From Candidatus Poribacteria bacterium (lineage in GTDB: Bacteria; Poribacteria; WGA-4E; WGA-3G): a DNA stretch of 64,000 nucleotides. The notes under the pieces are model-generated. The model did no database searches. It was not told the DNA's origin and saw only the letters and a program-made list of their open reading frames with translations. Below are positions 1 to 21,483 of this stretch, piece after piece. The number at the start of each line of letters is the position of its first letter. Position 1 is the stretch's first letter. The stretch spans positions 261,811 to 325,810 of the forward strand of contig OZ241980.1 of NCBI GenBank assembly GCA_965204285.1. Reading direction: 5' to 3'. Made by a program: the position numbers and the translations under genes.

Positions 1-1784
1 TCCCCGGCGCGCAAAGTGATATGACAATCTACCTTGCTTATACTAACGGTGTATTCCGCACAGATAATGCAGGTAAATCGTGGACGCCACTGTCCGATGA
101 TTTGACAGATAGGAAAATTCATGCAATCGCTGCCGTTGAAAACACCGTCTTTGCTGGTAGCGATAAAGGGCTATATCGCCTTAAATCAGAGAATTGGGAA
201 CAGTTGCCAGTAGGCGGTAAAGTGGAAAATATTCGAGCGTTGGCAAGTGCTGAACACCGACTCTATGTTGCCGTAGGAAAGGAGTCTAAAAATCAAATAA
301 CTTCTCAATTCTTGTCAATGATGACAACCCAAAAGGCATCCAAATCGCTTTATCGGTCAACAGACTTGGGAAAATCATGGAAATCAATAGACCCTGAAAA
401 AAGTCCTATGAAAATGTCTGGAAAAACGAGTATTCGGTTCTCTGACAAAAATAATTCAGAATCTACTAACACAGTAAGAATAATTGCACACCAAGATAAT
501 CTATTAGTCATTAATCTGGGTGATAATTCTTTTTTAAATGATTCTTATTACTCAAATGATGCCGGTAATAATTGGAATATCTTGCCACTAAGTTTTTCAG
601 ATAGTGACTCACTACCTGCAATCACAATGTTGAACAAAAACACATTCTACAGCAGTGGAAATGGTAGCATCTATCACACAACTAATGCTGGCAAGACATG
701 GCGTCAACTGAATACTGGGTTGGTGAATTCTTTCGTTATGAATTTAGTCGCTGTTAATGGTGCCCTCTATGCAAACATAGGGTCTGAACTTGTTGCCTCA
801 TCTGACGGTGGTGAATCGTGGACAACTGTACTTGGTAGAATAAGCAGCATCAATGGCATGGTTGAATCCAATGGTGTTCTCTATGTCAAAGGTTCAAAGA
901 ATCTGACACCACACCTTTACCGCTTGTCTTTTAACAACCAGGTAACCCCTGTCCCCGGCATGCCGAATTTTAAGGCTCCGGACTTTAACAAGTTGATGGA
1001 CGAAAAAATCGGTAAAGCATTTCTTGCCACACTTCAGGAGGATGCTCAGAAAGACCTTGCAGCAGAAAAGAAGATAAATCCTGAACATTTTGATGCAGAA
1101 ACGTTCAATGAAACCTACAATAAGATTGTGCAGGAAAATCTAAAAAAGTCATTTCAAGTTTCTTTTGGCAGTTTTGCTGTCAGCGGAGCAACCTACTATA
1201 TGGAGTCCGGAAGGAAACTGTTCAGATGGAAACCAGGTACTTCTGAATGGTACGACACAGGATTAGAAGATGAAGGTGGATCTGATCACTTTTATGGGAA
1301 AATCGACGATTTTGATTCTATTCGTTTCAAGATTGCCGTATCGGGAGACACTGTTTACGTCGGCAAAAGAGATGGACACCTCATGCTATCGCATGATGAA
1401 GGTGACATTTGGAACGATGTCACCACAACACTTCCATTTTCTGTTGGACGTTTCAATGCTATTACTTTCGCTGGGCAAACTGTCTATGTGGCTACCGACA
1501 AAGGTGTTGTGTGGTCAAACAATGGGACTAAATGGCACACACTCATTGATGCAGAAGGAACACCTCTCGCTATGAAAAGGTTGGCAGTGGATGATACAAA
1601 GGTTTACGGCGAATATAACCATAAAATATATCAATTGAATAAGGACTCTGGCAAGTGGCAACAGGTTACGCCAGAAATCCCACAATTTGTTTTCTCTTTT
1701 GACGTTGATGGAGACACACTCTATGTCGGAACAGCAGGACGAGGTGTGCTACGTTTCACACTTGACGATCCCGTGGATCAATAA
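1..1784 (+). CDS. C-terminal part of an ECF-sigma/TM/BNR beta-propeller fusion protein (paralog A); the 5' end lies upstream of the window
   Basis: The reading frame is open from nt 3 and the first Met of the listed ORF is internal. The sequence KSDMTIYLAY... aligns to SESDMTIYLAY in the full-length paralog at 15297-18338. It carries Asp-box-like motifs (SDNAGKSW, STDLGKSW, TTNAGKTW, SSDGGESW, HDEGDIW). Its C-terminus DGDTLYVGTAGRGVLRFTLDD is shared with the paralogs. Confidence 0.7.
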   Translation, partial: PGAQSDMTIYLAYTNGVFRTDNAGKSWTPLSDDLTDRKIHAIAAVENTVFAGSDKGLYRLKSENWEQLPVGGKVENIRALASAEHRLYVAVGKESKNQITSQFLSMMTTQKASKSLYRSTDLGKSWKSIDPEKSPMKMSGKTSIRFSDKNNSESTNTVRIIAHQDNLLVINLGDNSFLNDSYYSNDAGNNWNILPLSFSDSDSLPAITMLNKNTFYSSGNGSIYHTTNAGKTWRQLNTGLVNSFVMNLVAVNGALYANIGSELVASSDGGESWTTVLGRISSINGMVESNGVLYVKGSKNLTPHLYRLSFNNQVTPVPGMPNFKAPDFNKLMDEKIGKAFLATLQEDAQKDLAAEKKINPEHFDAETFNETYNKIVQENLKKSFQVSFGSFAVSGATYYMESGRKLFRWKPGTSEWYDTGLEDEGGSDHFYGKIDDFDSIRFKIAVSGDTVYVGKRDGHLMLSHDEGDIWNDVTTTLPFSVGRFNAITFAGQTVYVATDKGVVWSNNGTKWHTLIDAEGTPLAMKRLAVDDTKVYGEYNHKIYQLNKDSGKWQQVTPEIPQFVFSFDVDGDTLYVGTAGRGVLRFTLDDPVDQ

Positions 1785-4561: not shown

Positions 4562-4594
4562 AATTGAACAGTGTCAATAAGTTAACGCTACAGA

Positions 4595-4628
4595 ATTGCA
4601 CCTCTGTAGCGTTAAGCTGAGCAAACGT
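4595..4628 (+). terminator. stem-loop ttaacgctacag-N9-ctgtagcgttaa, a putative terminator
   Basis: It is a perfect 12-bp inverted repeat immediately after the stop of 4181-4561. There is no clear U-tract. Confidence 0.4.
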
Positions 4629-4676
4629 TCCCAAGAGGAGATCAAATTTACAACCTATCAGAAACTATTTTAACCC

Positions 4677-4820
4677 AAGTTGCTACCTATAAGATTTCAG
4701 ACACGCAGACACCATTTTTAATAGAGAACAGTTCGTTATTGGTGAATATCGTAGCGCAAACTTTCAGTTTGCGTTGTTTTATGCACAAACTAAAAGTTTG
4801 TGCTACATAGGTGGCAACTT
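4677..4820. mobile_element. MITE-like element family 2, copy 1 (TIR aagttgctacct / aggtggcaactt)
   Basis: It has 12-bp terminal inverted repeats. Two internal hairpins are present: gcgcaaactttcagtttgcg and gcacaaactaaaagtttgtgc. A second copy with the same TIRs and the same flanking ttttaaccc lies at 55202-55344. Confidence 0.6.
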
Positions 4821-4885
4821 ATACCATTTCTAAATAATGATATTACATTATTTCATAAATCGGTTGTCCGAATGCAGCACCCTCT

Positions 4886-4918
4886 TCTGTAGGAGCGACC
4901 TCCTGGTCGCTCCTACAA
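4886..4918. repeat. short perfect palindrome related to REP family 1 (tgtaggagcgacc-tcc-tggtcgctcctaca)
   Basis: Seen directly in the sequence. It shares the ctgtaggagcg arm start with family 1. Confidence 0.6.
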
Positions 4919-5256
4919 AGAAACTCAAAAATCGGAATGATACTTTGTCAATTAGAAATGGTATTAGGTTATTTTAAGTAAACACATTCAAGCGAGGTAA
5001 TCAAGATGTTTCCCATATTAAGAAGCTAAGCAAGACCTTTATACGGTAATTTTGATGCTAATATAGCAGCTATGGCATTCGTAATGCAGCAAATTAATGC
5101 AGTTAATTCACTTGTCAATATGAACAACACTGAGCCGCAAATTAGAACCCTATGAACCTACTCAAATTACTCAGCAGTTACAGACGAATGACGACTTACC
5201 GCGAGAACTGCGATTTATGCACATCCGCCCGTAACATTTTTAATAATAGCACACTG

Positions 5257-5339
5257 AAATAATTGCAATTTTTTTTCAAAAAGTGCAATTATTGCCCTCA
5301 AAAATGTGTCTATATATTAAAAGACCAATTTATGAGAGT
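5257..5339 (+). promoter_or_regulatory. 83-bp conserved upstream element, copy B
   Basis: It is near-identical to 3072-3154. It lies about 215 bp upstream of gene 5555-6175, which is followed by 6191-6970. Confidence 0.6.
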
Positions 5340-5554
5340 GTTTTCTTATGGATTTGGTATAATTCAGCTAAGAGAAAAATGGATTGTTTTACCTATCTCT
5401 ATTTAAGACTTTTTATTTGATTTGCTGCGTGTGATACACACATTTTACATTACAGTAGATTTTACAACACATCTTTGGCAGGCGTGTTTTTTTAGGGGAG
5501 GCGCCAACTGGCCAATGTGCACATATTTTACATTTTAATTTGGAGGACGCAAAC

Positions 5555-6175
5555 ATGAAAACCACTCTTAGCACTTTCCCGTACGTTGTCACTCTACTTC
5601 TTGTTGTCTTGTCGTTTGCACTCGGTTGTGGCGACGAAGACGACAACGTTGTTATTATCCAACCAACCGAACCACCGATAGAGGAAGTGATCAAGGAACC
5701 TATAGAAGAAGTTGATGAAAAATTAACGTCTACACAACGCGCACGAAAACTGATGAATGAAGTTAATCAGAAAAGAACAGAGGCATACCAACAAGCAGAA
5801 GAAGAAAATGATTTTACCACGTTGCCTGAAACTTCTGAAGAAATCTTCAAAGAAATCCTCGGATTTGAAGAAAATTTTACAAACAAGTTGCTTGGAACAT
5901 GGGAGGCTGCTCTAAGAGCTGCGTTGGTGGTTAAGCGAATAGATAACGCTACAATGAAAAGGTATGAAAATTTTAAAATCGCTTACTTAGGAAAAATCCA
6001 TCTGCAAAATGGTAAACCTTATTTTGAATTTATCGGTGCTTATGATGACATTATCGCGGAGTATTTGCGAATTCAATTTGAATTTCCTGGCACACCTGAA
6101 GAAAAAATTCTTAATATGTTTGGCGATTCTCTGCTTAGAGGAAACACAGACATAATCTATCCAGAAGGTTTTTAA
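5555..6175 (+). CDS. putative lipoprotein, hypothetical
   Basis: GGAGG lies 7 nt upstream of the ATG at 5555. The signal peptide ends ...SFALGCGDEDD, which is lipobox-like. The mature part is acidic and low-complexity. Confidence 0.5.
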   Translation: MKTTLSTFPYVVTLLLVVLSFALGCGDEDDNVVIIQPTEPPIEEVIKEPIEEVDEKLTSTQRARKLMNEVNQKRTEAYQQAEEENDFTTLPETSEEIFKEILGFEENFTNKLLGTWEAALRAALVVKRIDNATMKRYENFKIAYLGKIHLQNGKPYFEFIGAYDDIIAEYLRIQFEFPGTPEEKILNMFGDSLLRGNTDIIYPEGF

Positions 6176-6190
6176 GCATGGAGGCTTGTC

Positions 6191-6970
6191 TTGTTACGGG
6201 ATATTTTCACCAATAAATGGGTTTTAAGTGCCTTGGCTTTTCTGTTTACTCTGACACTCTGTTGTTGGTTCTATTATCACAACGTTTCCAGCGAAATTGA
6301 GAAAGAACAATTGCGTCTGGATCAACTTATGCAACGCAATACGGATCGTGATAGTGAAAATGTCTTGACAGATAACACCCAACATATAAAGAGGCAAACG
6401 CAAGCAAGTCAACACAAAGATAAACCAAATTCTGACTTCGTCGTGTTGCCAGAGCAAACATCACCCCAAGAAACATCGCATCTCAAAACGCCAGAGAACC
6501 TATCCGATATAGATGAAAAGCGGGATGAAGTTGTTGTATCACCACATGGGTTAGGACCTTATCCTAAGATTCCTGATGGCTGGAATCCGCATGCTTTTGA
6601 TGGCGAGATGACGATTGGTCAAGAATTGATAGAACGTGTCCGTATAAAAATGTTCAATGAAGGCATATATACGTATGGGGGCACCATAGACAACGGAACA
6701 GGTTTGGTGTATCCTATCACGCGCCACCGAGTTTATATTCGATGGGAAGAAGCAGTATTGCCATCGCTCGGTAAAACAAGATATGCCCAGTTGATTCGGG
6801 GACACCCAGATATTGTTGCTAAAATAAAAAGCAACGCACGAGCTCGGTTGTCGGATTTACCAGAACAAATGCGTCCGATCACTGAGGTTGATATACCAGA
6901 AGGTATCAATGTCTTAGCAGAAAGTGATGGCATTGCGCCTTATGATTTTCTAAACCTTGAAAGGGAATAA
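6191..6970 (+). CDS. hypothetical signal-anchored protein, paralog of 3369-4151
   Basis: It has an N-terminal TM segment and a conserved C-terminal domain, as for 3369-4151. Confidence 0.6.
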   Translation: MLRDIFTNKWVLSALAFLFTLTLCCWFYYHNVSSEIEKEQLRLDQLMQRNTDRDSENVLTDNTQHIKRQTQASQHKDKPNSDFVVLPEQTSPQETSHLKTPENLSDIDEKRDEVVVSPHGLGPYPKIPDGWNPHAFDGEMTIGQELIERVRIKMFNEGIYTYGGTIDNGTGLVYPITRHRVYIRWEEAVLPSLGKTRYAQLIRGHPDIVAKIKSNARARLSDLPEQMRPITEVDIPEGINVLAESDGIAPYDFLNLERE

Positions 6971-7000
6971 TCTTTCAATCTATAAAAAGGAAGGAATATT

Positions 7001-7501
7001 ATGAAAAAACTTTCGACGATCACGATCACAACGTTATTTATTTTCGCTGCTGTTCAGATATCAGTGATAGCTGTGAATAATAATGGAACAAGTCATTATC
7101 CATTTGAATTTGGTGTGTATTCAGGCATATCCCGCTATGTCAGCGATACAGATAGCCCTTTAAGTTCATGGGCATGCACTGGGATTTTTAGTCGCTCCGC
7201 AGATGAAGACTTGGGTCTACAACTCATATATAACTGGTCAGCATCCGCAGGTGTTTATTGTTCGGATGGCAATTATCGAGGCAGTTCCGATATGCGTGCG
7301 GATATTATGACATTTTATCGGACGGGCAGTAGTGATTTTGTAGGCGAAGTGAGCGAATATGTGGGTTTTTATGTCCAAATGGAACCACCGCCAGATAACG
7401 TCACTTTGGATATAGAAGATTGCAGTTCCCACGGTGAAATTGATGGTGAAAACCAGATAAATGGTAACTCGCGGAGTTCGCGCTCTGAGATACCATTTTA
7501 A
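7001..7501 (+). CDS. hypothetical secreted protein
   Basis: It begins with a signal peptide (MKKLSTITITTLFIFAAVQISVIA). GGAAGG lies upstream. Confidence 0.45.
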   Translation: MKKLSTITITTLFIFAAVQISVIAVNNNGTSHYPFEFGVYSGISRYVSDTDSPLSSWACTGIFSRSADEDLGLQLIYNWSASAGVYCSDGNYRGSSDMRADIMTFYRTGSSDFVGEVSEYVGFYVQMEPPPDNVTLDIEDCSSHGEIDGENQINGNSRSSRSEIPF

Positions 7502-7514
7502 CCATTACATGTGT

Positions 7515-7542
7515 CTTGCGCGGAGACGTTAAACCCGCGCTC
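7515..7542 (+). repeat. hairpin motif tgcgcgg-agacgttaaac-ccgcgc
   Basis: It lies immediately 3' of the stop of 7001-7501. The same motif recurs at 10100-10127 after the stop of 9845-10087. Confidence 0.5.
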
Positions 7543-7560
7543 TAACAAAAGGAGAATTTA

Positions 7561-7950
7561 ATGAATAACAAATTCTTACAACAATGCATCGCGCTTTCGG
7601 TGCTGTGCTGTATTGTATTAGCATTTATATTAATTATTAATGTAGAGGAAGCCGAATCCTTTATCATATGGTTTATAATTTGGTTGTTGAATAGAGTTAT
7701 AGATGCCGTAGAGGCACTTTGGGATTGGTTTAGCGACATAATCAATAGTATTCCGGCGATTGTGCAATCTATATCAAGATGTGCTACGGCTGTTTCTGCA
7801 TGTATGTCGGCTGTGCAGGAAGTATATGACGCTTTACAGATAGCTGAAGATGATCCGACATTATCGAATGTTTCTGCTGTATCGGCTAAAATTGCAGTTG
7901 CATACAATACATGTGGTGACGTGTGGGGCGAATGTTTCCCAGATGATTGA
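7561..7950 (+). CDS. hypothetical small membrane protein, Cys-containing
   Basis: AAAGGAG lies upstream. There are two predicted hydrophobic helices. Confidence 0.45.
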   Translation: MNNKFLQQCIALSVLCCIVLAFILIINVEEAESFIIWFIIWLLNRVIDAVEALWDWFSDIINSIPAIVQSISRCATAVSACMSAVQEVYDALQIAEDDPTLSNVSAVSAKIAVAYNTCGDVWGECFPDD

Positions 7951-8011
7951 CCTAATGGCAGCGCAAGCTTTCAACATAAAATTGCGCTGCCTCAACAAAA
8001 GGAGAATATAA

Positions 8012-8746
8012 ATGAAATTCCGACTAATGTTTTCTCTTAGCCTTTTAATACTTTTTTTGGGATGTGGCAGTAGTGATGATAACAGTGAGACACATTGGAA
8101 TGTCATAAATCAGGAAATACCAGAAGCCGATGTCATTCATAGCAATAAAGCTGAAGAGGTCCTTGCACAACTAAAACAAGAATTTGCAGGCGATATTCTT
8201 GATGATGATTTTCAGACAATCAAAGAACTCACGAATTCTCCAACCTATCTGAAGTTCATTTCGCAGGATGTTGAATATGGGTCATTTATGGATTATGTGG
8301 ATGCGAATATTCCACCAAAACACTGGTTTCAAGAACTAATTGAAAATTGGATCGACAACCCTGAAGATGCGGATTATTTAGTCACATATTATATCGTATC
8401 TAATGGTCGACATGGAAGAGCTCTTGAATACCAAGGTGAACCGGAAGGTACTGCTGATGAATTAATGACTGAGACGTTCGCCGAACCCCACGTATGGGCA
8501 TGGTTGAATGGACGTTTTCCAGATAATCGCGCATTTGTATTGTTTACAGTTGAGCTCGCTATTAGAGAAAGACAGTTAGAAGAAGAAGATATTTCAATAT
8601 GTGATGGATTAATTAATGATTTTGGACAGGATGATGGAATGATCATGTTCGCTTTAAACTATCCATTCAGGTTGCCTCAAATTTTAAATGATTTCAGTGA
8701 CATAGATATTTTCCTGAAATGGACAAAGGGAGAGTTTACTAAATGA
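8012..8746 (+). CDS. putative lipoprotein, hypothetical, acidic
   Basis: AAAGGAG RBS. The signal peptide ends LILFLGCGSSDD. The stop overlaps the next start as ATGA. Confidence 0.5.
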   Translation: MKFRLMFSLSLLILFLGCGSSDDNSETHWNVINQEIPEADVIHSNKAEEVLAQLKQEFAGDILDDDFQTIKELTNSPTYLKFISQDVEYGSFMDYVDANIPPKHWFQELIENWIDNPEDADYLVTYYIVSNGRHGRALEYQGEPEGTADELMTETFAEPHVWAWLNGRFPDNRAFVLFTVELAIRERQLEEEDISICDGLINDFGQDDGMIMFALNYPFRLPQILNDFSDIDIFLKWTKGEFTK

Positions 8747-9456
8747 AGCGCAAGTATTTTTTATATGTTTTAATTTCTATGGCCTTTATAATTCTCTGTA
8801 TATGGTTTTCTATACTTGATAAGCAAATTAAACAAAATATATCTGATCCGGTGACTGTGACAGAAACTAAGGTCAACGAATCTATCTCAATGCCAATAAA
8901 AAAGGCATTTGACACCAAAAAACCTCAGAATAAAAAATCGACGATTGGACAAGAATATAAAGATGTTATTTTGAGTTTTCTTCCATCCCACATGCACGAT
9001 TCTCCTGAAATGAAAAAAATCTTAGCGGTTTTCGAAAGTGAAGAATTTGAGACATTTATAAAAAATAATCCCCAAGGACTCGGTGACTTTTACGACTTCT
9101 TTCAATCACAAGGATTACCTCTGGATAAGAATGAATTATTTGCTGAATATGATAACGATTTCAAAAAATTATTTCCGAATCACACGACAGAACAAATTGG
9201 AGAACTTTTACATTTAGACCTTTTTGCTCGATTTCTTGAAAACGATGTGTATGTCCATTTCTATGAAGACGAAGCACATGGTTTAGAAACTTTTGAAAAT
9301 GTTCTGACGGATTTTACTCTGGAGTCCCATAATAAAATCTGGATGAACGCTCATTTCAAGGGAAATCATCGTGATTTTGGTGTGTGGGCAATGAATGTTC
9401 TTCAGGACCTGAGTATCTTTGAAATGGATAAAGATAAAATACGTCCCTACCTTTGA
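8743..9456 (+). CDS. hypothetical signal-anchored protein
   Basis: Its start overlaps the stop of the previous gene as ATGA, suggesting translational coupling. It has an N-terminal TM segment. Confidence 0.45.
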   Translation: MKRKYFLYVLISMAFIILCIWFSILDKQIKQNISDPVTVTETKVNESISMPIKKAFDTKKPQNKKSTIGQEYKDVILSFLPSHMHDSPEMKKILAVFESEEFETFIKNNPQGLGDFYDFFQSQGLPLDKNELFAEYDNDFKKLFPNHTTEQIGELLHLDLFARFLENDVYVHFYEDEAHGLETFENVLTDFTLESHNKIWMNAHFKGNHRDFGVWAMNVLQDLSIFEMDKDKIRPYL

Positions 9457-9848
9457 ACAAATTTCGTGCATACTTAACTCCTGAAGAAAATGAAACCCTA
9501 CGGGCACTGATGAATCAAGAGGATAAAAATACACCCGTTCCCACTCTTGATACTTCAGACGATATAATAACCGAAACTGTTACCAACACACCAATACCGC
9601 CTGTAACTCAAGATACATCTACCAAAACTGCTATACCCGAAAATACTCATGTATCTCATGATAAGAGATTCAGGAGTAGTCTTCATAAAACTTTTGAACA
9701 ATTTAAGGACTCAAATGTTCGCTTCCGATCCGCAATGCAGATCGTAGAACAATACGGTGTCCAAGAAGGACTCCATCAGATCAGAGAAAATGATCCTGAG
9801 ATGGCAATAATTGTTGAACGTTATCTGAAACAACAGGAGAAAAAATGA
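9453..9848 (+). CDS. hypothetical protein; start uncertain (TTG at 9453 or ATG at 9509)
   Basis: It is an in-frame ORF within a coupled gene string. It contains a Thr/Pro-rich linker. Confidence 0.35.
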   Translation: MNKFRAYLTPEENETLRALMNQEDKNTPVPTLDTSDDIITETVTNTPIPPVTQDTSTKTAIPENTHVSHDKRFRSSLHKTFEQFKDSNVRFRSAMQIVEQYGVQEGLHQIRENDPEMAIIVERYLKQQEKK

Positions 9849-10087
9849 AAAAACTGTATTTTTTCTTCTCTATAGCAGTGCTCATTATATTTGTTGCTAT
9901 CTTGTATGTTGTGGGTCATGCAACGGATACAACGTTAACAGACCCACTCAAAGAAGAAACTTCAATTAGTGTAACAGAGTCTGTAAAATCGAAAACGATT
10001 AAGAAAGGTTGTGGATGTTGTGAAAATCGTATGAAACGGTTAATGAAGAAATATAGAAATAAGAAAGCGGCAGCAAGTTCAAAGTAA
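9845..10087 (+). CDS. hypothetical small membrane protein with a GCGCC motif
   Basis: It has an ATGA overlap with the upstream gene and a single TM helix. The recurrent hairpin 10100-10127 follows it. Confidence 0.4.
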   Translation: MKKLYFFFSIAVLIIFVAILYVVGHATDTTLTDPLKEETSISVTESVKSKTIKKGCGCCENRMKRLMKKYRNKKAAASSK

Positions 10088-10099
10088 CAATTCATGCGT

Positions 10100-10127
10100 C
10101 CTGCGCGGAGACGTAAAACCCGCGCAC
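10100..10127 (+). repeat. hairpin motif ctgcgcgg-agacgtaaaac-ccgcgc, second copy
   Basis: It is near-identical to 7515-7542. Confidence 0.5.
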
Positions 10128-10211
10128 AAATACCGTAAAATCCATAGGTCGTGTTGAGTTTTGCGGAATTCAAAATAGCAACTAACAACAACCAAAACAA
10201 GGAGGAATACC

Positions 10212-10496
10212 ATGGCTACATATAACGCTACAGTTCATAGAGTAATAGATGGTGATACGTTTGAAACTACATCTGGTAAAAAGATTAGGTTACATGATGT
10301 ATACGCGCCTGAAGCAGGAGAAGACGGCGGAGCTTTGGCTGCCAGCAGATTAAAAAATCTTATAGATGGTAAATCTGTAAAGATTCAAGAGTTGTATAGC
10401 AATTATGATAGAGAAGTTTCTGAAGTATGGCGAAATTCAGATGGACTTCATGTTAATCGAGCAATGAGAAATTTTGGTTATACCAAAAATTCATAA
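10212..10496 (+). CDS. minimal SNase-like (thermonuclease-fold) protein
   Basis: AAGGAGG RBS. It is alignable to staphylococcal nuclease: VIDGDTF, RLHDVYAPE (cf. RLLLVDTPE), and a later ...WRNSDGLHVNRAMRNFGY segment. There is no signal peptide. Confidence 0.55.
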   Translation: MATYNATVHRVIDGDTFETTSGKKIRLHDVYAPEAGEDGGALAASRLKNLIDGKSVKIQELYSNYDREVSEVWRNSDGLHVNRAMRNFGYTKNS

Positions 10497-12658
10497 TCAA
10501 TTAAAACCGAAATAAATAACGTTCAGAGTCGTTCAGTTTAAGGTTTTATCTTTACTTTAGCATGGTCGCGCCCAGGAGTTTCGCTCCTATAGTAAGATAT
10601 CCTTGTAAGAAGGTAGAAACCATTGGAAAATTGAATGGCTCTGAAGCGCGTTTATACAACTTCAATCAGTTCAAATCTGATGAGATTTTCCGTAAATTCA
10701 AAATCATTTTTTAATTGACTTATACTTTTAAATTCTAATTATGTTATACTAATCCTTGTAAAATGTAATACGCTCCAATTTGATTGTGAGATAACCTATG
10801 CAATACAATGATGCTGACCTGATTCAACGCACCTTAGAAGGTGATCAGCAAGCTTTTACGGATCTTGTGGAAAAATACCAAAAACAGATACACGCGTTGG
10901 CGTGGCAGAAGATTGGTGATTTTCACATTGCACAGGAAATTACGCAGGACGCTTTTTTAACTGCGTATCAAAAACTCGCGACGCTCACACATCACAGCCA
11001 GTTTTCAGGATGGATCTATGCTATTACCAGCAATAAGTGCAAAAATTGGCGGCGAAAGAAAAGACTGGCATTTCAATCCTTACAAACAATAGATCCTGTT
11101 GAATTAGAGGAGGTGTATTATTCAGAGTATATGACTAAACAACGCGAAGAAGCAGTAAATCGAAAACGACGCGCTATTGTGCAGAAATTGTTAAGTAAGC
11201 TGCAAGAGAGTGACCGCACCATCGTAAATCTATTTTACATCGCAGAAATGACCTGTGAGGATATTGGAAGGTTTTTAGGTGTATCTCCTAACACCGTCCG
11301 TAGTAGACTCCACCGCGCACGCAACCGATTAAAGAAGGAAGAAGCGATGATTAAAGAAAACTTAAGTAGTTTCCAATTGCCAACACAATTAACTGAAAAC
11401 ATTATGAAAGAGATTTCACACCTTAATCCAGTAGCACCTTCAGGAAACAGACCTCTGGTGCCAATAGTTGTTTCTGCCGCCTCAGCCATTTTAGTACTAT
11501 TGCTGATGGGTGCTGGCACACAATACTTAAATCGTTTTCAGAAACCGTATAGCTTAAACGCACAATCAGAACCGACAATTGAAATAACAGAGACACAACT
11601 TGTCATTGACATGCCAGCAGAACCTGCAGTACGCAACCAGATTGGACGTTCAGATGTCCCAGGCCAAAGTGACGGTGCGGGACAGAAACCAGACACACCA
11701 CTATTCGCTGCAGCACAAGCGGATGATGCCGAAATTTTAAAGGTAAAGCCGCAGTGGGTTAAAACAAAAGGATTTGAAGGCGGTGTAATTAATTCACTTT
11801 TCTCAACAACGCGTAGAGACATTTTTGCAGAGACTACTACAACTCTCTACAAACTCTCAGACAATGGAACGAGATGGAAACCTGTCAAAATATGGTATGC
11901 ACCTTCACTTAGATGGACAGATTGGTCAATAGGTGGCAGACGGATGGTTGAGTCGAACGACACACTCTACATCGTCACAAATGAAGAAATTTGGGCATCC
12001 GTTGATAGAGGAGAGACATGGAATTCACTTGGAACACATCCCGAAGGACCGCCAATAGGTATGGTAAGAACCGATGCAGGGTTTTATCTTGGCCTTGCCG
12101 ATGGGATTTACAGATCTGAAGATGGTATGGCACCGTGGATATCTCTAAAAGATGGAATGGAACCAGGAAAAATTAAGGCGATTGCTGCAGTGGAAAACAC
12201 AGTTTTTGCAGGGACCAATAACGGACTCTATCGTCTCAAAACAGGTGTATGGGAAAAAGTATCAATTAATCAGCCAGATAATACAGAACAAAATCAGGTT
12301 ATCCATGCACTGGCAGTTTCTGAACGCCAACTTTATGCAGCAGTAGGAAAGAAGTTTGAATATAGGTCGGGAAAGCAGCATCAATTAGAACTTACAAATG
12401 ATTCTTGGTGGTCACTCTATCGCTCTAATGATTTTGGTAATTCATGGGATTCCATAGATCCAAGGAAAAGACCATTAAACGAGATAAAATCGAAAAGTGA
12501 AGTGCCAATCAATTTTCCACCCAATGGTGTCAATGTAGCATTAGGTGCAAACCTAAAGATAATAGCGGAAAAAGAAAAAGTTATGGTTGCTGTCCCATCA
12601 GAATTATTCTACTCAATCGATACTGGTGAGACATGGAATTACTTCAGTTTAAATGATA

Positions 12659-13671
12659 ACGTGAGTTTGATAAATAGTATTAGAAATTACATATCATTGG
12701 CAACTGATAGTCATTTTCTTTAAGTTCTTTATGTTTAAGTGAAGGTTTTTTCTGTAGACAGGTATAAGCGATCAAGGCAGCAACTGCATTCACTTGAAAG
12801 TTAACAGGACTTCTATGGCGTGTGTGTTGTATCTCTGTCTGACTTTTAAGTTCTTTATTCACCGACTCAATAAGCATGCGTTTTTTTAGAAGTGCTGCAT
12901 CAGCATCAGACAAAGGTTCAGGTTTCATATTCTTACGCACCTTGTAAATGAGCGTCACACCGTCTTCTTGGAGTCTCTCCCGCAGATTTTTGTTGATATA
13001 CCCTTTATCGGCAAATAGTTTGCCAAAGAGCCCTTGACACAACTGTGGCACGGTTCGCCTGTCATCTACGTTTCCCGCTGTCACCATAGCGGACAAGAGT
13101 TCACCTTGGTCGTTGATGACGAGATGTAGTTTAAACCCATAGAACCATCCCATAGAGGTTTTAGAACGCTCCGCATAATCAATGAAGACGCGATGCGCTG
13201 AAATCCGGCGATTGTGGCAGACCGGCAGCGGTGTTGAGTCTATGAAGGAAATGCCACGACACTTACCGAAACGGGTGTTGAGAAAAATAGACAACAAAAC
13301 CAATACCTCTTGTGAGAGCTGCACAAAACGACTATAGCTGACAAGGTTCGGAAACGCCCAACGCAGATGGAAACAGACATAATCCTGATAATACGCTTTA
13401 AAGTTTTTATACTGCTTCTGATGAAAAAGCACAAGTATCGTCATGACTTCGCTCGGATGAAGGCGCCGGGGTCTGCCCCGTGTGTTGTTTGTTCCGGGTA
13501 TGTCCGGCAACTGGTATTGTGCTTGATATTGTTCATACGTAAGAAAAAAGTCGTCAATTTCACAGAAAAGTGTTATGATATCCATCAGAGAACTCCTTTG
13601 TAAGTATAATGGTATACTTCATCATAACAAAGGGGTTCTCTATTTACCAGTTTTTAATTATCAAACTCACG
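12659..13671 (-). mobile_element. IS982-family insertion sequence (1013 bp)
   Basis: It has perfect 15-bp terminal inverted repeats (acgtgagtttgataa ... ttatcaaactcacgt). A 10-bp direct repeat, ttaaatgata, flanks it on both sides. It encodes one 301-aa transposase. Confidence 0.75.
12680..13585 (-). CDS. IS982-family DDE transposase
   Basis: The 301-aa product begins MDIITLFCEIDDFF and contains a GFKLHLV block and later acidic residues typical of IS982/IS4-like transposases. AAGGAG RBS. Confidence 0.65.
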   Translation of the reverse strand: MDIITLFCEIDDFFLTYEQYQAQYQLPDIPGTNNTRGRPRRLHPSEVMTILVLFHQKQYKNFKAYYQDYVCFHLRWAFPNLVSYSRFVQLSQEVLVLLSIFLNTRFGKCRGISFIDSTPLPVCHNRRISAHRVFIDYAERSKTSMGWFYGFKLHLVINDQGELLSAMVTAGNVDDRRTVPQLCQGLFGKLFADKGYINKNLRERLQEDGVTLIYKVRKNMKPEPLSDADAALLKKRMLIESVNKELKSQTEIQHTRHRSPVNFQVNAVAALIAYTCLQKKPSLKHKELKENDYQLPMICNF

Positions 13672-15052
13672 TTAAATGATAGGTTAGGTGCCAGAATTCC
13701 TTCCCTTGTTCTGATGTTGGATGCAAAGACTTTCTATAGAGTTGGCGAGGCAGGCATTTATCGTACAACCGATGGGGTTAAATCGTGGCATCTGCTTAAT
13801 ACTGGATTATCAAGTGCAACCGTTACAAATATAGTCGCGATTAAAAACCGCGTCTACGCAAAAACAACCGATGAAGTTGTTACTTCAACTGATGGTGGTG
13901 AATCGTGGAGACCGCTACCTATTGATGCTAAAAATATCTTTGTAATGGCAGGATTCAACAATGAACCATATATAAGGCAATATATGAGGAACTTAAAGAA
14001 CGCACCGCCTATTCTACGTTTATCCATTGAGGACAATGAACTTACCCCTATTCCGAATATGCCTGTCTCTGAGGGATTCGATTACATTTTCCAAGAACGA
14101 ATTCCTCCATATTTGATACAATTGGGAAGTTTCGCTGTTAGCGGTGATACCTACTATGTGGAATCTGGACAGAAACTTTACAGATGGAAACTTGGTACAT
14201 ATAAATGGTACAACACAGGTGTAATGGATAAAATGAAACAACCTGATCGCCGCCATAGGGCTACCATGTCTAATGATTATCCGATTGGTATTTCTTCATT
14301 TTTTGTTTCACCCGATTTAATGAGTTTTAAAATTGCAGTTTCAGGCGAAACTATTTACGTCGGCAAACGGGATGGGCATCTCATGCACTCACTTGATGAA
14401 GGAGTTACTTGGAACGATCTTACTGATCATCTACCATTTTCTGTTAAAAGTTATAAATCAATAGTTTGCGCTGGAAACTTTGTCTTTGTGGCAACTGATA
14501 AAGGTGTTATACTGTCTGGCAATGGTGTTGACTGGCACATACTCACAGATATAGAAGGGACACCTCTTATAACAAATAAATTAGTGGTGGATGATATAGC
14601 GGTTTACTGTGAGGCTAAGCAAAAAATATATCAATTGAACAGGAACACGGGCATCTGGCAACCGGTTACACCAGAAATACCATATCCTGTTTCCAGTTTT
14701 GATGTTGATAATGACACGCTTTATGCCGGAACTTTTGGTGGGGGCGTGCTACGTTTTTCACTTGATAATCAGAATTGAGTGATGCATTTATAATATCTCC
14801 AATATTCGATTCACATTGAATTAATATTTCTCCAAGCGGGATAAAATCCCGCTTTTTTAGTTTAAGTTAAATTTATAGAATTTAAGCATTTACTTGTTTT
14901 CTGCTATAATAATTGCAACACTTATAAAATCTGAAGAGCGCAATAAAATTGATCCTACTTCTGAAAACGAACTGGCTACGTAACCCATAAATATAATTTC
15001 ACCATCTTGCCAATCTTTCCTAAAAAAATCTATAAAATTCATATTCTTTCTA

Positions 15053-15085
15053 AAAATTGCATTTTTTTTCAAAAAAGTGCAATAT
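15053..15085 (+). promoter_or_regulatory. AATTGCA-N16-TGCAAT inverted repeat, third occurrence, upstream of the intact sigma-fusion gene
   Basis: It has the same half-sites and the same T8-C-A6 spacer as the 83-bp elements at 3072 and 5257. Confidence 0.45.
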
Positions 15086-15127
15086 CTAATCAGAAAATCG
15101 CGTTTATAATTACAGAAGGTTCTTTCA

Positions 15128-15230
15128 TTGTATGGTGAACCTTGAAATTAAAGAGGCACATTTTCTGTAGGAGCGATCTCCGAATCGCGACAAAACTCAC
15201 TGATAGTCGGGAATCGGAGTTCCCTCCTAC
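15128..15230. repeat. REP-like element family 1 (arm order X-Y)
   Basis: ctgtaggagcgatctccgaatcgcgac - 14 nt - gtcgggaatcggagttccctcctac. Its 5' flank tatggtgaaccttgaaattaaagaggcacat is shared with 1821. Confidence 0.8.
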
Positions 15231-15296
15231 GCCTCAAAATGTCCTGTTAATTCTAAAGGTCACTATAATTGAATTTTTCTATATCTAAGGTGTACG

Positions 15297-18200
15297 ATGA
15301 AAAACGATGATTCTGAACTAATTCAACGCACATTAGAAGGTGACCAACACGCTTTTGCTCTACTCGTAGAAAAATACCAAGAGCAGGTACACACCCTTGC
15401 GTGGCAAAAAATTGGTGATTTTCACATTGCACAAGAAATCACGCAAGATGTTTTCCTCACTGCATATCAAAAATTCTCGACCTTCACACACTACAGACAA
15501 TTTGCAGGATGGCTCTATGTTGTTACAAACCGAAAGTGCATTGCATGGCACCGGAAGAAAAAAATAAAAACACAATCAATTGATGAGACAAATCCAATTG
15601 AGTTGGAGGAAGCATATTATACAGAATATATGGCGCATCAGCGGGAAGAATCAGCAAAAGAAAAACGCCGCACTATAGTTCATAAACTGCTCAGCAAGCT
15701 AAAGGAAAGTGACCGTACAGTGATGAACCTCTATTACATCGCTGAAATGTCATGTGAAGAAATTGCTGAGTTTTTGGGTGTATCTCCCAATACGGTTCGG
15801 AGTAGACTCCACCGCGCACGCAACCGATTAAAGAAGGAGGAAGCAATGATTAAAGAAAATCTCAGCAGTTTCCAACTGCCAACACAATTAACTGAAAACA
15901 TTATGAAGGAAATTTCACGTCTCAATCCAGCGGCACCTTCTGGAAATAAACCACTTGTGCCGATAGCAGTTTCTGCCGCCGCTGCAGTTTTAGTCTTAAT
16001 GCTGATAGGGACTGGGATGCAATACTTAAATCGTTTTCAGAAACCGTATAGCTTAAACGCACAATCTGAGCCGACGATTGAGATAACAGAGACACAACTT
16101 GTCATTGACACACCAGTAAAACCGTCTGTACGGACTCAGGTTGGGAAATCTGATGTAACAGGTAGAACAGAAGGGGCAGGTCAAAAACCGGACGCGCCAC
16201 TATTGGCTGCAGCACAAGTGGATGAAGATGAAATATCAAAACCGATACGGCAATGGAGAGATGCAAAAGGACCGGAAGGTGGTGCAGTTGGTACTCTCTT
16301 CACAACAAACAGCGGTGACGTGTATGCAACGTCAAAAAACGGTCTCTACAGACTCACAGGTGATGGAAAAGCATGGAAACTCATAAACACTATTAAATAT
16401 TCTTCCGGTGATGCACTAACAGGAAGGAATGTATTTCGACATGTAGCAGAATGGCAGAATACATTCTACCGTGCTATTGATACAAAAATCTTCGCTTCTA
16501 CAGATAGAGGCGCGACATGGAAAGAATTTTGCGAGTGTATAAAAGGTGATCTTGTTGGTATGGTGATAACAGGAAGTAATCCAGAATCTGAAAGCGATAT
16601 GACAATCTACCTTGCTTACAAGAAAGGAGTCTTCCGTTCAGATAATGCTGGCAAATCGTGGACACCACTACCCGAAGGTATCAACGATAGACAAATTGGT
16701 GTAATCACTAATATAGGAAATACTGTTTTTGTCGGTACTGACAAAGGACTTTATCGTCTTAACGCTGATAAATGGGAACAATTGTCCATCGCTCAAGCAG
16801 ATACGAAAGAAAACACGCTACCTATTATTGCGATGGAAGTTGCAGAAAATAGCCTCTATGTTGTTACAAGGAAAAGTATATTTGGAGATCCTGATCCATT
16901 ATACACAAGTTTCGGTTTGTCGCGTGTAAGAATCAATTCTCGGATACCAAGAATTGGATTTAAACCTCGTGAACCATACGTGTGGTCAATCTTTCGTTCA
17001 GATGATATAGGCAATTCATGGAAAACTATTACGCCAGATAGCAACAATATAAAGAAGAAACCAGGGCAAAAGCCAAAAATCTCCAATATATTTCCACCAC
17101 GTAAGAACGAAGGCGATGCTCCCTTTATAACATCTCTGGATACAACCTTCAAAATGTCTGCAGCGGTGGGAAAGGTGGTAGTAATAGATGGTGAGGCATT
17201 CTTTTTTTCTATCAATGCTGGTGAAACTTGGAGAACCGTAGACAAAACGGCTAATATAGGTAAGACTTCTGGTTTGGCATTGTTAAATGAGAATACTATC
17301 TATGTATCTGGAAGATTCGGAATTTATCGCTCGACTGATGGCGGAGAATCATGGCATGAATTTAATACCGGTTTAGTGAACACAGAAGTTCGGGAATTAA
17401 TTGCTGTTAAAGGAACCCTCTACGCAAACACAAGAACTGGACTTTTCAGTTCTGTTGACGGTGGAGAATCGTGGATACCTGTTCCAGGCGATACTGGCTA
17501 TCTCACGCGTTTGGCGAAATTTAACGAGGAGCTCTATGTAAGAGATGATAAAATCGGTGCACCCCGGTTTTTCCGCTTTTCCGCCAAAGACAATAGACTC
17601 ATGGACATCTCAGAAATACCTGCCTTTAAAAAAGTTGATTTTCATAAAGAAGTACGTGAGAAACCAATTCAGGATAGAGGACCTATAACATCGGTACCAC
17701 ACGGAAAGGGAAGTTTTTATACGTTGATGCTTGGTAGCTTTGCTGTCAATGATGGAACGTATTATGTGGAATATATGCAAAAACTCTTCAAATGGAAATC
17801 TGGTATACCTGAATGGTCCAACACTGGATTATTAGATAAAATTGGTATCGAGAAAAATTGGTATTCCAATAACTTATTCGATTCTATTGGCTTTAGGCTT
17901 GCTGCCTCAGAGAATAATGTTTACGTTGGAAAATGGGATGGTCATCTCATGCAATCGTTTGATGAAGGCAACACATGGAATGATGTCACCGCGAATCTTC
18001 CATTTTCTGTCGTCCATTTTAGGGCAATAGTTTTCGCTGGAAACTTTGTTTATGTCGCAACCGACAAGGGCGTCGTGCTGTCAGGCAACGGCAATGACTG
18101 GCACATACTCACTGATGCAGAAGGGGCTGCTCTTGTTATGAATAGATTAGCAGTGGATGACACGACGGTTTACGGGGAATCTAAGCGAATAGTTTACCAA

Positions 18201-18338
18201 CTGAACAGGAATTCTGGCACGTGGCTGCAAGTCACGCCAGAAATTTCATATCCTGTTAACTGTCTTGCTGTTGATGGGGATACGCTTTATGTCGGTACAG
18301 CTGGATCCGGGGCACTCCGCTTTTCGCTTGATAATTAA
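15297..18338 (+). CDS. ECF sigma-70 domain / single TM / BNR-Asp-box beta-propeller fusion protein (intact paralog C, 1013 aa)
   Basis: The N-terminus has sigma-70 region 2 (LVEKYQEQVHTLAWQKIGDFHIAQEITQDVFLTAY) and region 4 (DRTVMNLYYIAEMSCEEIAEFLGVSPNTVRSRLHRARNRL). A hydrophobic helix follows (LVPIAVSAAAAVLVLMLIGTG). The rest is about 750 aa with repeated S-x-D-x-G-x-(S/T)-W motifs. Confidence 0.8.
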   Translation: MKNDDSELIQRTLEGDQHAFALLVEKYQEQVHTLAWQKIGDFHIAQEITQDVFLTAYQKFSTFTHYRQFAGWLYVVTNRKCIAWHRKKKIKTQSIDETNPIELEEAYYTEYMAHQREESAKEKRRTIVHKLLSKLKESDRTVMNLYYIAEMSCEEIAEFLGVSPNTVRSRLHRARNRLKKEEAMIKENLSSFQLPTQLTENIMKEISRLNPAAPSGNKPLVPIAVSAAAAVLVLMLIGTGMQYLNRFQKPYSLNAQSEPTIEITETQLVIDTPVKPSVRTQVGKSDVTGRTEGAGQKPDAPLLAAAQVDEDEISKPIRQWRDAKGPEGGAVGTLFTTNSGDVYATSKNGLYRLTGDGKAWKLINTIKYSSGDALTGRNVFRHVAEWQNTFYRAIDTKIFASTDRGATWKEFCECIKGDLVGMVITGSNPESESDMTIYLAYKKGVFRSDNAGKSWTPLPEGINDRQIGVITNIGNTVFVGTDKGLYRLNADKWEQLSIAQADTKENTLPIIAMEVAENSLYVVTRKSIFGDPDPLYTSFGLSRVRINSRIPRIGFKPREPYVWSIFRSDDIGNSWKTITPDSNNIKKKPGQKPKISNIFPPRKNEGDAPFITSLDTTFKMSAAVGKVVVIDGEAFFFSINAGETWRTVDKTANIGKTSGLALLNENTIYVSGRFGIYRSTDGGESWHEFNTGLVNTEVRELIAVKGTLYANTRTGLFSSVDGGESWIPVPGDTGYLTRLAKFNEELYVRDDKIGAPRFFRFSAKDNRLMDISEIPAFKKVDFHKEVREKPIQDRGPITSVPHGKGSFYTLMLGSFAVNDGTYYVEYMQKLFKWKSGIPEWSNTGLLDKIGIEKNWYSNNLFDSIGFRLAASENNVYVGKWDGHLMQSFDEGNTWNDVTANLPFSVVHFRAIVFAGNFVYVATDKGVVLSGNGNDWHILTDAEGAALVMNRLAVDDTTVYGESKRIVYQLNRNSGTWLQVTPEISYPVNCLAVDGDTLYVGTAGSGALRFSLDN

Positions 18339-18387
18339 CTTTAGCATTGAGTTGATTGTAGTAAAACTTACAATTAATGGGACACTT

Positions 18388-18446
18388 CTGTAGCGCAAAC
18401 TGTTAGTTTGCGTCACATCGGCACAAACTAACAGTTTGTGCTACAC
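18388..18446. repeat. solo internal double-hairpin of MITE-like family 2
   Basis: It has gcgcaaactgttagtttgcg and gcacaaactaacagtttgtgc but lacks the TIRs. Confidence 0.55.
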
Positions 18447-18677
18447 CTTCTATTGTCCGTTATGTTACAAAACAGGTTTATCAAAGTGTCTCAATAATTT
18501 CAAAGTTCACTATAAATCTACAGCGTATCTCATAAATAGTAAAAACATTAGATTGTTTTTTAATTATGAATCATTTCTGTTTTGAAGTAATAATCCAACG
18601 TCTTGTATCGCCACCCCAAACTTTATTATTTAAGTTTGGGTGCACAGGTCTTGATAGTAATTTTCCAGGAGATAAAA

Positions 18678-19673
18678 ATGAAACGCGCCTATATGTTTTT
18701 TGGAATGACATTCCTGTTTAGTATTTTTATGCTTACCGTAAACGCTTGGGGAGCTCCGTATATTTCTTTCAATTCTATCAGGACAGGGGAAACTGGCATC
18801 TACATCGGCATCTACATCATTGATACAAACGGGAAGAATCTACGTAACCTACCCGCATTAGGCTCTAGCGCAGCGTGGGCACCAGATGGGCGTTCTTTTG
18901 CTTTTGCGTCGAACCGTGATGGAAAGTCCAAAATCTATATTAAGATATTCAATGCAGCTGAGGCGCGTCGGTTGACAAATCATCCGGAGGGCGATGCTGA
19001 TCCTGCCTGGTCCCCTGATGGAAATTGGATCGCTTTTGTATCCACGAGAACAAAGGAACATCATATTTACAAAATAGGTATCAACGGGAAGAATCTACAG
19101 AGACTGACTAACCAAGGAAAAGACAACCTTAGCCCAGCCTGGTCTCCAGATGGGCAATCAATTGCTTTCGATTCTTTTGGGAATGATGGCAACGGTATCT
19201 ATGTGATGGACGCAGATGGAAAAAATCCCAGACAGCTTATAGACAAGCGGCATGTAGACGGGCGTCCTTCGCATCCTGCTTGGTCGCCTGATGGGAAACA
19301 GATTGCTTGTACTGTCCTTAATCAGGGGAGTGGTATCTACATCATGGATACAGATGGACAAAACGCCCGCCGCGTGTCACCTCTTGGGACTTGGAGCTAC
19401 AATCCTGCGTGGTCTCCTGATAGTAAGTGGATTGCCTACGATGCCTTCGATGCAGGAATTGCGAATCCTTTGCAAAACCGAAACCCGAATTTAGGGAGAC
19501 ACATTTTTATCATTTCTGTCACGGGGGGCGAGCCACGGCAAATCACACAACATCCTGGGCTACATTATTCTCCTGCATGGGTTCCCGAAAGTTTTTTCTC
19601 CGTTTCTCCGGCTGTGGACACCCAGACGACCCTCTGGGGTCGGTTGAAACAAGCTGAACGTATGACGCAATAA
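18678..19673 (+). CDS. TolB-like PD40 beta-propeller repeat protein, periplasmic
   Basis: Signal peptide plus repeated PAWSPDG..IAF motifs. AGGAG RBS before the ATG at 18678. Confidence 0.65.
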   Translation: MKRAYMFFGMTFLFSIFMLTVNAWGAPYISFNSIRTGETGIYIGIYIIDTNGKNLRNLPALGSSAAWAPDGRSFAFASNRDGKSKIYIKIFNAAEARRLTNHPEGDADPAWSPDGNWIAFVSTRTKEHHIYKIGINGKNLQRLTNQGKDNLSPAWSPDGQSIAFDSFGNDGNGIYVMDADGKNPRQLIDKRHVDGRPSHPAWSPDGKQIACTVLNQGSGIYIMDTDGQNARRVSPLGTWSYNPAWSPDSKWIAYDAFDAGIANPLQNRNPNLGRHIFIISVTGGEPRQITQHPGLHYSPAWVPESFFSVSPAVDTQTTLWGRLKQAERMTQ

Positions 19674-20301: not shown

Positions 20302-21483
20302 TTAAACCACTTCCATCCATACCCCCGGCACAAACCCAGGATACTTCCCTTCACTGAACGCAGGATAATATTCACCCTCTCCACTAAAATCGTGGACAGT
20401 CTCTCCGCCATCCGCATTTGGAATATGTACTCTGCACGTATAATCAGTTTGGTGGAACAGCTGCTGCGGTGTCGGTGTTGAACTCTCAACGCGATATGTT
20501 GCCAATGCATCCTCATCCACAGAGACTCCCAGTCCCGGTGAATCTGGAACATGGATCGTCCCTTCAACTACTTCGAGTCGGTTCTCAAGTAAATCCGATT
20601 CCCACAACTCATGGCAGGTGATTGCTGGCAATTCGGCTTGCGATAGCACTGCACCGAGATGCACACAATGTGCTGTTGTAATGCCAGTGCCGACCATCTG
20701 AAGCCAGAACGGTTGCCCAAACGAGGCACAAAGTGCATTAGTCCGAAGTAGTGAGTTGACACTGCCTCCAACAACAAATCCGCCACAACAGCGCGCATGT
20801 AAACAGGATTCGTTGTAATGCTCTACAATACGTTTTTCAACAGCCTCCTGCAACCTTGCCGCGCCCTCAATATCTGTCCCAAGATAGAACGGACTTTCGT
20901 AGATAGCAACATTCGGATGTTCATCTAACTTCTGTAAAACAGGAATAGCGTTGTCCGCTGTCAGTAGGAAACCGTTGAAGTCAATGTCAAGTTTGTAATC
21001 CGCCGGTACCGCATTGCCAACTGCGTCAACTTGTGCGAAGATGTCTCGCCATGGTCTCGCTTTGAGTTTGGCAGATGTATAACCTCTTTTAACCGATTCC
21101 TGCACTTCCGCAACCCAATCCTCTGGCGGCATGTCGATATCCCACCATGAGATCGGACACTTTTCACGCACCTTTGGACCAATCAGTTCAGACACGGATA
21201 CACCCACCGTTTTACCAACAGCATCATAAAGCGACATCTGGATACCGAACCCGACACCATCATCGTGCATACACGCAAACGGATTTTTTCCTATCAACCG
21301 TTCAATATTACCCGATTCATCAGATAAATTTTCACCATACCCTATAATTCCGTTACTCAATTCTACGCGATAGACGTGAACCCTTTCGCCATGCGTTGCT
21401 GCTCGATGCATGTGTCGACTGACACGATCACAATAAAAAGGCACATTCAAGGGGATTGTTTCTATATGTTTGATGCTAAGCAT
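20302..21483 (-). CDS. enolase-superfamily enzyme (mandelate racemase / muconate lactonizing enzyme-like)
   Basis: KLDIDFNG, ESPF and other MR/MLE-like blocks are present. The RBS is TTAGGAGG. It has a C-terminal extension of about 60 aa. Confidence 0.6.
   Translation of the reverse strand: MLSIKHIETIPLNVPFYCDRVSRHMHRAATHGERVHVYRVELSNGIIGYGENLSDESGNIERLIGKNPFACMHDDGVGFGIQMSLYDAVGKTVGVSVSELIGPKVREKCPISWWDIDMPPEDWVAEVQESVKRGYTSAKLKARPWRDIFAQVDAVGNAVPADYKLDIDFNGFLLTADNAIPVLQKLDEHPNVAIYESPFYLGTDIEGAARLQEAVEKRIVEHYNESCLHARCCGGFVVGGSVNSLLRTNALCASFGQPFWLQMVGTGITTAHCVHLGAVLSQAELPAITCHELWESDLLENRLEVVEGTIHVPDSPGLGVSVDEDALATYRVESSTPTPQQLFHQTDYTCRVHIPNADGGETVHDFSGEGEYYPAFSEGKYPGFVPGVWMEVV

Follow-up and report, generated by a model that had tools for sequence, protein, structure and literature searches.

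Insertion sequences (IS) of the IS982 family are 845-1282 bp in length and encode one transposase of ~290 aa between inverted repeats of 11-32 identical bp, which start with 5'-AC and follow the consensus AC(N)6T(N)5TT, and their target duplications vary from 2 to 10 bp (Fayad et al., 2020, PMC7335449). Their DDE triad has been termed 'atypical' as it is without a K/R 6-7 positions after the Glu and has a semi-conserved K/R ~17 positions after it, and members of the family inactivate genes by insertion, as in the case of carO by ISAba825 (PMC7335449). Sigma factors that are controlled within a single polypeptide are also known. In Pseudomonas putida, Prc and RseP release IutY (ECF243), a sigma/anti-sigma hybrid whose C-terminally truncated form needs no inducer for its activity (PMC8999054), while a sigma-only truncation of SCO4117 (ECF52) retains activity (PMC5826349). 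Herein we analyze a 64,000-nucleotide stretch of a Candidatus Poribacteria genome (contig OZ241980.1, positions 261,811 to 325,810, referred to as the window), in which an IS982-family element is inserted at codon 621 of a 985-codon gene, designated gene B, that encodes an extracytoplasmic function (ECF)-type sigma domain. We consider it highly probable that this represents a recent IS982 transposition into gene B by which a sensor was lost, with the gene probably on its way to becoming a pseudogene.

The insertion sequence and its target site

The components of the interrupted locus are as follows, where plus is the strand of gene B.

10798..12658, plus strand: 5' part of gene B, codons 1-620 and one base
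12650..12658: target-site duplication, left copy, TAAATGATA
12659..13672, minus strand: IS982-family insertion sequence, 1014 bp, whose transposase is read against the direction of the host gene
12659..12673, plus strand: terminal inverted repeat at the transposase-distal end, ACGTGAGTTTGATAA
12659..12723, plus strand: IS-encoded tail of the truncated open reading frame (ORF) 10798-12723, 21 foreign codons (NVSLINSIRNYISLATDSHFL) and then a stop
12680..13585, minus strand: transposase gene, 301 aa, apparently intact, the only long ORF between the inverted repeats
13658..13672, minus strand: transposase-proximal terminal inverted repeat, reading ACGTGAGTTTGATAA on this strand, with these 15 bases also at the end of 18 of 18 complete related copies
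13673..13681: target-site duplication, right copy, TAAATGATA
13682..14778, plus strand: remainder of gene B (3' part), from within codon 621 to codon 985 and the stop, predicted blades 7-14 of the encoded protein

A first-pass annotation of this DNA had claimed perfect 15-bp terminal inverted repeats, and direct reading together with repeat and pattern scans confirmed them as exact reverse complements that are identical at 15 of 15 bp. The 15-mer ACGTGAGTTTGATAA has two matches in the window, even when up to two mismatches are allowed, where 0.25 would be expected by chance. Within 12500-13850 the junctions read ...CAGTT TAAATGATA / ACGTGAGTTTGATAA ... TTATCAAACTCACGT / TAAATGATA GGTTAGG..., and because the right (transposase-proximal) terminus is ...CTCACGT in 18 of 18 complete related copies from other Poribacteria genomes, base 13672 (T) is assigned to the IS. 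The element is therefore 1014 bp and the target duplication 9 bp. The flanking repeat of the earlier annotation thus stands, with corrected lengths: the values of 1013 bp and 10 bp given there had counted base 13672 twice. Under either bookkeeping (1013/10 or 1014/9) the IS plus one duplicate amounts to 1023 bp, which is also the spacing of the direct repeats around the IS given by the repeat finder. A boundary that takes in the flanking TA, proposed by the repeat finder as a 17-20 bp repeat, was rejected by means of two related copies (L032 and L039), in which TT or GA replaces TA on one side and duplications of 7-8 bp are kept.

Judged by its transposase the element is an IS982-family insertion sequence, as had been proposed. 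The protein scores 249.4 bits against the NCBIfam model NF033520 transpos_IS982 (cutoff 130) and matches Pfam DDE_Tnp_1_3 at E 8.9e-68, and in the NCBIfam profile search it falls below the cutoff of each of the IS5, IS4, and IS1182 models. Its closest homologs are 283-321 aa, mostly 296-301 aa, and an AAGGAG ribosome-binding site can be read 8 nt upstream of its ATG. Residues D116 (FIDST), D193 (FADKGY), and E240 (LIESV) occupy invariant columns among 18 homologs, their catalytic role being assigned by motif context, and the presumed catalytic E240 is followed by an invariant K247 at +7 and by R256 and R258 at +16 and +18. The size (1014 bp with one 301-aa ORF), the 15-bp repeats with their 5'-AC ends, and the 9-bp duplication all lie inside the published ranges of the family, and the IS is a new, probably unnamed member of it.

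Complete copies with ~90% nucleotide identity to the whole length of the IS occur in other Poribacteria genomes. When 26 bases of its transposase-proximal end were used as a probe, 36 exact matches were obtained in public genomes, all of them in Candidatus Poribacteria assemblies and at least 10 on one chromosome (OX638351.1), and at least 10 Poribacteria genomes contain several related copies. Clear duplications (9, 8, 8, 8, 7, 7, 7, 7, 5, and 4 bp) flank 10 of 18 complete, non-redundant related copies (1006-1047 bp), and these ten are all intergenic or lie 0-37 residues from one end of the longest spanning open frame. TA alone is common to both flanks in seven of the remaining copies and one has no duplication. 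The IS lineage is multi-copy, and the many copies at different sites in these genomes, together with the empty sites described below, indicate indirectly that it is mobile and has been active across Poribacteria. The transposase-distal flank starts with TA in 17 of the 18 copies, and this pattern suggests one cut that is fixed at TA and another that is variably placed. Inside this one IS lineage (copies L007-L042 and the window site), the target duplication spans 2-9 bp.

The empty site can be reconstructed and is found in related genomes. Deletion of 12659-13681 yields an uninterrupted 985-codon frame that reads ...TWNYFSLND/RLGARIPSLVLMLDAK..., and the restored gene B aligns end-to-end with the intact paralog C (15297-18338) at 50% identity, which bears out the expectation that excision would restore a frame collinear with this paralog. 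The alignment is ungapped at the junction and has a 2-residue gap five positions after it. A database search retrieved intact orthologs of the restored protein of 985, 987, and 982 aa (88%, 83%, and 81% identity), and the organism names on its relatives are all Candidatus Poribacteria; the 641-aa truncated ORF of the window is a cluster of one. In the comparison with related genomes that the first-pass annotation had recommended, two orthologous loci, L001 and L002, contain the intact gene (985 and 982 aa, 88% and 81% identical) with one TTAAATGATA at the exact insertion site, where the DNA reads ...CTTCAGTTTAAATGATAGG... with a single target copy. Against the orthologous loci, the left flank of the window aligns to position 7861 and the right flank from position 7852, and the overlap corresponds to exactly the duplicated bases.

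Gene B and its sigma-propeller family

The features of the host protein, of the region that follows its gene, and of the paralogs in the window are given below.

10864..11064, plus strand: sigma region 2 of B (aa 23-89), Pfam Sigma70_r2
11176..11337, plus strand: sigma region 4 of B (aa 127-180), Pfam Sigma70_r4_2 at aa 127-178
11452..11517, plus strand: transmembrane helix of B (~aa 219-240), the single strong hydropathy peak, residues 217-242
14834..14854, plus strand: terminator-like hairpin with a T-run after gene B, from a consensus scan only
15297..18338, plus strand: paralog C, intact, 1013 aa, with the architecture of B
21..1784, plus strand: paralog A, of which the window includes the C-terminal propeller part as the gene extends beyond its left end, with Pfam Sortilin-Vps10 and PSII_BNR hits

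Residues 1-190 of B are an ECF-type sigma domain that scores 87 bits against TIGR02937 sigma70-ECF (cutoff 42.9), and the protein has sigma2 and sigma4 only and matches the ECF profile, as is characteristic of ECF (group 4) sigma factors. These profile hits and the hydropathy peak agree with the earlier view that the upstream half of the interrupted gene retains an intact sigma domain and a transmembrane helix. The interval between sigma4 and the helix is ~35 residues with one short helix (197-209), and no Pfam or NCBIfam match at E ≤ 0.01 to an anti-sigma domain of the FecR or zinc-finger type was obtained in it. The ortholog P0001, which is 88% identical, was modelled with AlphaFold from 58 aligned sequences (mean predicted local distance difference test score, pLDDT, 69; predicted template modelling score, pTM, 0.58), and the model has a helical sigma domain, an unstructured region at residues 240-315, and then ~14 four-stranded blades at residues 320-985. 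We infer that the host protein is a one-polypeptide transmembrane regulator with a cytoplasmic ECF sigma, one helix, and an external sensing part, and that a disordered linker of ~80 residues joins the helix to the propellers. The external part is predicted to be a GH74-like pair of seven-bladed beta-propellers, which probably bind a ligand. When this medium-confidence model was used as the Foldseek query against the PDB, GH74 xyloglucanases were retrieved first (2cn3_A, E 3.6e-21, target TM-score 0.57), followed by periplasmic sensors with tandem propellers from hybrid two-component systems of Bacteroides (4a2l). For paralog C, the score against the NCBIfam glycosylhydrolase-like model F510_1955 is below the cutoff (109 vs 175). 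The IS lies after residue 620, just past an Asp-box (SIDTGETW), in a loop modelled at low confidence (621-623) that joins blade 6 (residues 587-617) to blade 7 (residues 630-658).

The family to which gene B belongs is very large, with more than 4200 relatives at E ≤ 1e-10 in the database search. Paralogs A, B, and C are found in the window within 18 kb, paralog A is syntenic with a 1021/1026-aa paralog in L001/L002, and 4-5 paralogs occur in 15 kb of L001; members of the family are often arranged in tandem arrays. No description of the sigma/helix/propeller architecture was found in the papers searched; among these, the 2021 ECF classification mentions in its main text neither Poribacteria nor propeller extensions, and a search of the literature on sigma factors in Poribacteria gave nothing relevant. 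The members of the family could serve sponge symbionts as one-component sensors of glycans, and in our opinion the family is a more interesting object than the IS and deserves separate attention.

Consequence and age of the insertion

We propose the following course of events. The DDE transposase would recognise the 15-bp terminal repeats of the IS, and staggered cleavage of the target followed by repair would leave the 9-bp duplication. Translation of B would then end 21 codons into the IS, giving a product with the sigma domain, the anchor, the linker, six of the 14 blades, and the 21 foreign residues, and the other eight blades would be lost. As judged from the model, such a product probably has an incomplete first propeller without the second one and is a misfolding stump, and the ligand-sensing function of paralog B would disappear with it. 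The downstream 365 codons would most likely be without a useful expressed product; the listed ORF at 13609-14778 starts at an ATG inside the IS and has no obvious ribosome-binding site at 13609. Gene B would subsequently decay to a pseudogene, and its loss would be tolerated because the genome has many paralogs, three of them within 18 kb. Most likely, the insertion has cost the genome one of its many sensor paralogs. Paralog C should escape any polar effect because of the terminator-like hairpin at 14834-14854.

A scan for promoter-like sites over 10400-15400 returned 19 sites where 13.6 ± 3.2 are expected, which is not above chance, and a rightward promoter candidate inside the IS (13551-13579) was rejected as a sign of expression of the 3' half on the grounds that the scan is at chance level. 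Gene B and its closest ortholog share the 5' region, and no ECF-type autoregulatory motif could be defined in an upstream alignment of B, C, and the orthologs. On the other strand, the consensus scan found no terminator-like site after the transposase stop at 12680 (12400-12680, minus strand), and transcription of the transposase gene could continue into the 5' half of the sigma gene, antisense to it.

Several observations bear on the age of the event. Both inverted repeats and both copies of the duplication are perfect, and neither half of B has gained a stop or a frameshift. When compared with the L001 ortholog, the orphaned 3' half has a ratio of nonsynonymous to synonymous divergence (dN/dS, Nei-Gojobori) of 0.37 and the ectodomain portion of the 5' half one of 0.36, and two intact orthologs give 0.30-0.37 between them. 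Given the perfect repeats and duplicates, the open halves, and a dN/dS without visible relaxation, we infer that the insertion is recent. A copy in the middle of a gene is an exception among the related copies and fits a young insertion, neutral or mildly harmful, that has not yet been filtered.

The arithmetic of the site invites a different explanation, namely that the segment of 341 codons belongs natively to the sigma-fusion gene, as an insertion or a domain, since 1023 bp is a multiple of three and, taken alone, that number favors it. The first-pass annotation had itself described the insertion as precise and in-frame, and it is true that 1023 = 3 x 341 and that the two halves share a frame; what does not hold is the biological meaning, as 22 stop codons interrupt the frame of gene B within the IS, beginning at 12721 after 21 codons, so that no continuous protein is possible, and the only long ORF of the segment is the transposase on the opposite strand. 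The divisibility of 1023 by three is a one-in-three coincidence without consequence. Moreover, the interval W613-Y639 that brackets the site has 24-29 residues in 58 of 58 aligned family members, none of which has extra residues, and this test in relatives upholds the preference already expressed for an IS. Together with the empty sites in the orthologs, the alignment and the in-frame stops refute a native 341-codon domain, to which we give next to no credence. It might also be asked if the insertion is fixed, as the source is a metagenome-assembled genome, the 641-aa truncated protein is a cluster of one, and scans of metagenomes gave no match to either the empty or the filled junction, and thus no other sample with the latter; the IS could be a minority allele of the sampled population, or a repeated IS copy could have been misplaced by the assembler. 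We consider this very improbable. A perfect 9-bp duplication of a sequence that is single in the orthologous empty sites indicates real transposition and is not made by misassembly, and a minority allele would remain a genuine insertion.

A gain or change of function deserves more attention, although it too is unlikely in our estimation. The 641-aa product would in this case be made, and its misfolded stump would be trimmed by envelope proteases and cut in the membrane, thereby releasing a sigma factor that is independent of the signal, or the product would stay tethered and titrate RNA polymerase or a partner. The truncated ORF retains the native 5' region, the complete sigma2 and sigma4 regions, and the membrane helix, and there are precedents in the release of IutY by Prc and RseP, in the inducer-free activity of truncated IutY, and in the active sigma-only form of SCO4117 (PMC8999054, PMC5826349). 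By analogy with these, an ECF sigma that is blind to its signal and constantly released and active through stump degradation and intramembrane cleavage can be imagined, an idea that we hold to be quite doubtful. The active truncations of IutY and SCO4117 had lost the anchor and nearly all of the extension, whereas ~380 external residues remain here. Between sigma4 and the helix no anti-sigma domain can be detected, so these precedents do not tell how the intact protein is controlled. In addition, the insertion is indistinguishable in sequence from a random hit, and the avoidance of coding sequence by the related IS copies points to purging, not selection, as the usual fate of intragenic hits. 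The earlier proposal that the insertion created a constitutively anchored sigma or an anti-sigma-like product therefore lacks support, as the full-length protein is anchored too and no anti-sigma domain can be detected; the upstream product does keep the sigma domain and anchor, but it is not limited to these, with the extracytoplasmic residues following them. If true, such a release would be a natural, IS-made counterpart of the engineered IutY and SCO4117 truncations, and one branch of a very large sensor family would have been rewired in a sponge symbiont.

We therefore retain a recent transposition with loss of the sensor as our explanation, against which the following points weigh. As its native upstream region and the whole sigma domain are still present, the truncated ORF may have residual or altered activity, and both the number of blades and the placement of the IS between blades 6 and 7 rest on a model of medium confidence. 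With its terminal repeats, target duplication, and empty site in relatives, the insertion is a textbook gene disruption, and it provides a dated example of ongoing IS982 activity and of the turnover of paralogs in the Poribacteria, a group of uncultivated sponge symbionts. The truncation allele that arose here naturally could also be useful in studies of how the sigma-propeller family is controlled.

Paralog turnover and relation to known systems

The surroundings of gene B differ between the window and the syntenic loci L001 and L002, and the array of paralogs undergoes rapid turnover. Over 15297-19673, L002 lacks both paralog C and the neighbouring gene with PD40 repeats (18603-19673), and in that locus the B ortholog is directly followed by the MR_MLE gene (20302-21483 in the window). 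In L001 the ortholog of C is split into 613 and 361 aa. When B is compared with its ortholog, synonymous divergence amounts to 0.54 for the sigma region and to 0.14-0.16 for the ectodomain, and over nucleotides 501-700 of B, paralog C (91% and 79%) is as similar to B as the ortholog is; this pattern, from a comparison of window 10798-11800 with 15297-16300 and with L001 6001-7000, suggests patchy gene conversion among the paralogs from sigma4 through the transmembrane helix. Upstream, a 7.5-kb block (~3140-10660) has no counterpart in L001 and L002, which carry a 3-keto-disaccharide-hydrolase-like gene in its place, and the block appears to be a strain-specific island. With 9845-10087 left out, seven of its eight ORFs gave no match in PHROGs and PADLOC and six of them none in Pfam either; a 94-aa SNase-like nuclease is located at 10212-10496. 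A 580-aa ortholog of B (P0105, L043) was considered as a second independent truncation and is probably an assembly artefact. Its contig is from a 10x long-read assembly with many fragmented genes and has no IS at the break, and for these reasons sequencing errors are the likelier cause.

As compared with the described members of its family (ISAba825, IS1187, and IS982), the IS is alike in its size of ~1 kb, in the single DDE transposase of ~300 aa that matches the family profile, in the 5'-AC start of the repeats, and in the short, variable target duplications of these elements. It matches the AC and the T9 of the repeat consensus, but the TT at positions 15-16 is absent (AA and AT), and it has K247 at the position 7 after the Glu where the family is described as being without Lys. 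Unlike the named members, it belongs to a Poribacteria lineage and is ~90% identical to unnamed Poribacteria copies.

The host protein likewise resembles known regulators in plan and differs from them in its parts. In IutY, too, a single polypeptide joins an ECF sigma to a membrane helix and to a sensing part outside the membrane (PMC8999054), but IutY has a FecR-type anti-sigma region and a TonB-dependent receptor as partner, whereas the host protein has no detectable anti-sigma domain, only ~35 residues between sigma4 and the helix, and a tandem-propeller ectodomain. The ECF52 proteins of Actinobacteria, represented by SCO4117, similarly have a sigma domain, a membrane segment, a low-complexity linker, and an external domain of carbohydrate-binding type (PMC5826349). 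They are restricted to Actinobacteria and contain a zinc-finger anti-sigma and a small carbohydrate-binding module, in contrast to the host protein of Poribacteria, which is without a zinc finger and has a GH74-like double propeller of ~660 residues. In its predicted fold, a pair of seven-bladed propellers with Asp-box (BNR) motifs at residues 320-985, the ectodomain resembles the GH74 xyloglucanases and the BT4663 sensors of Bacteroides, at a sequence identity of 10-16%. The propeller domain, which is otherwise part of a secreted enzyme (GH74) or joined to a histidine kinase (BT4663), is joined in the host protein to a sigma factor.

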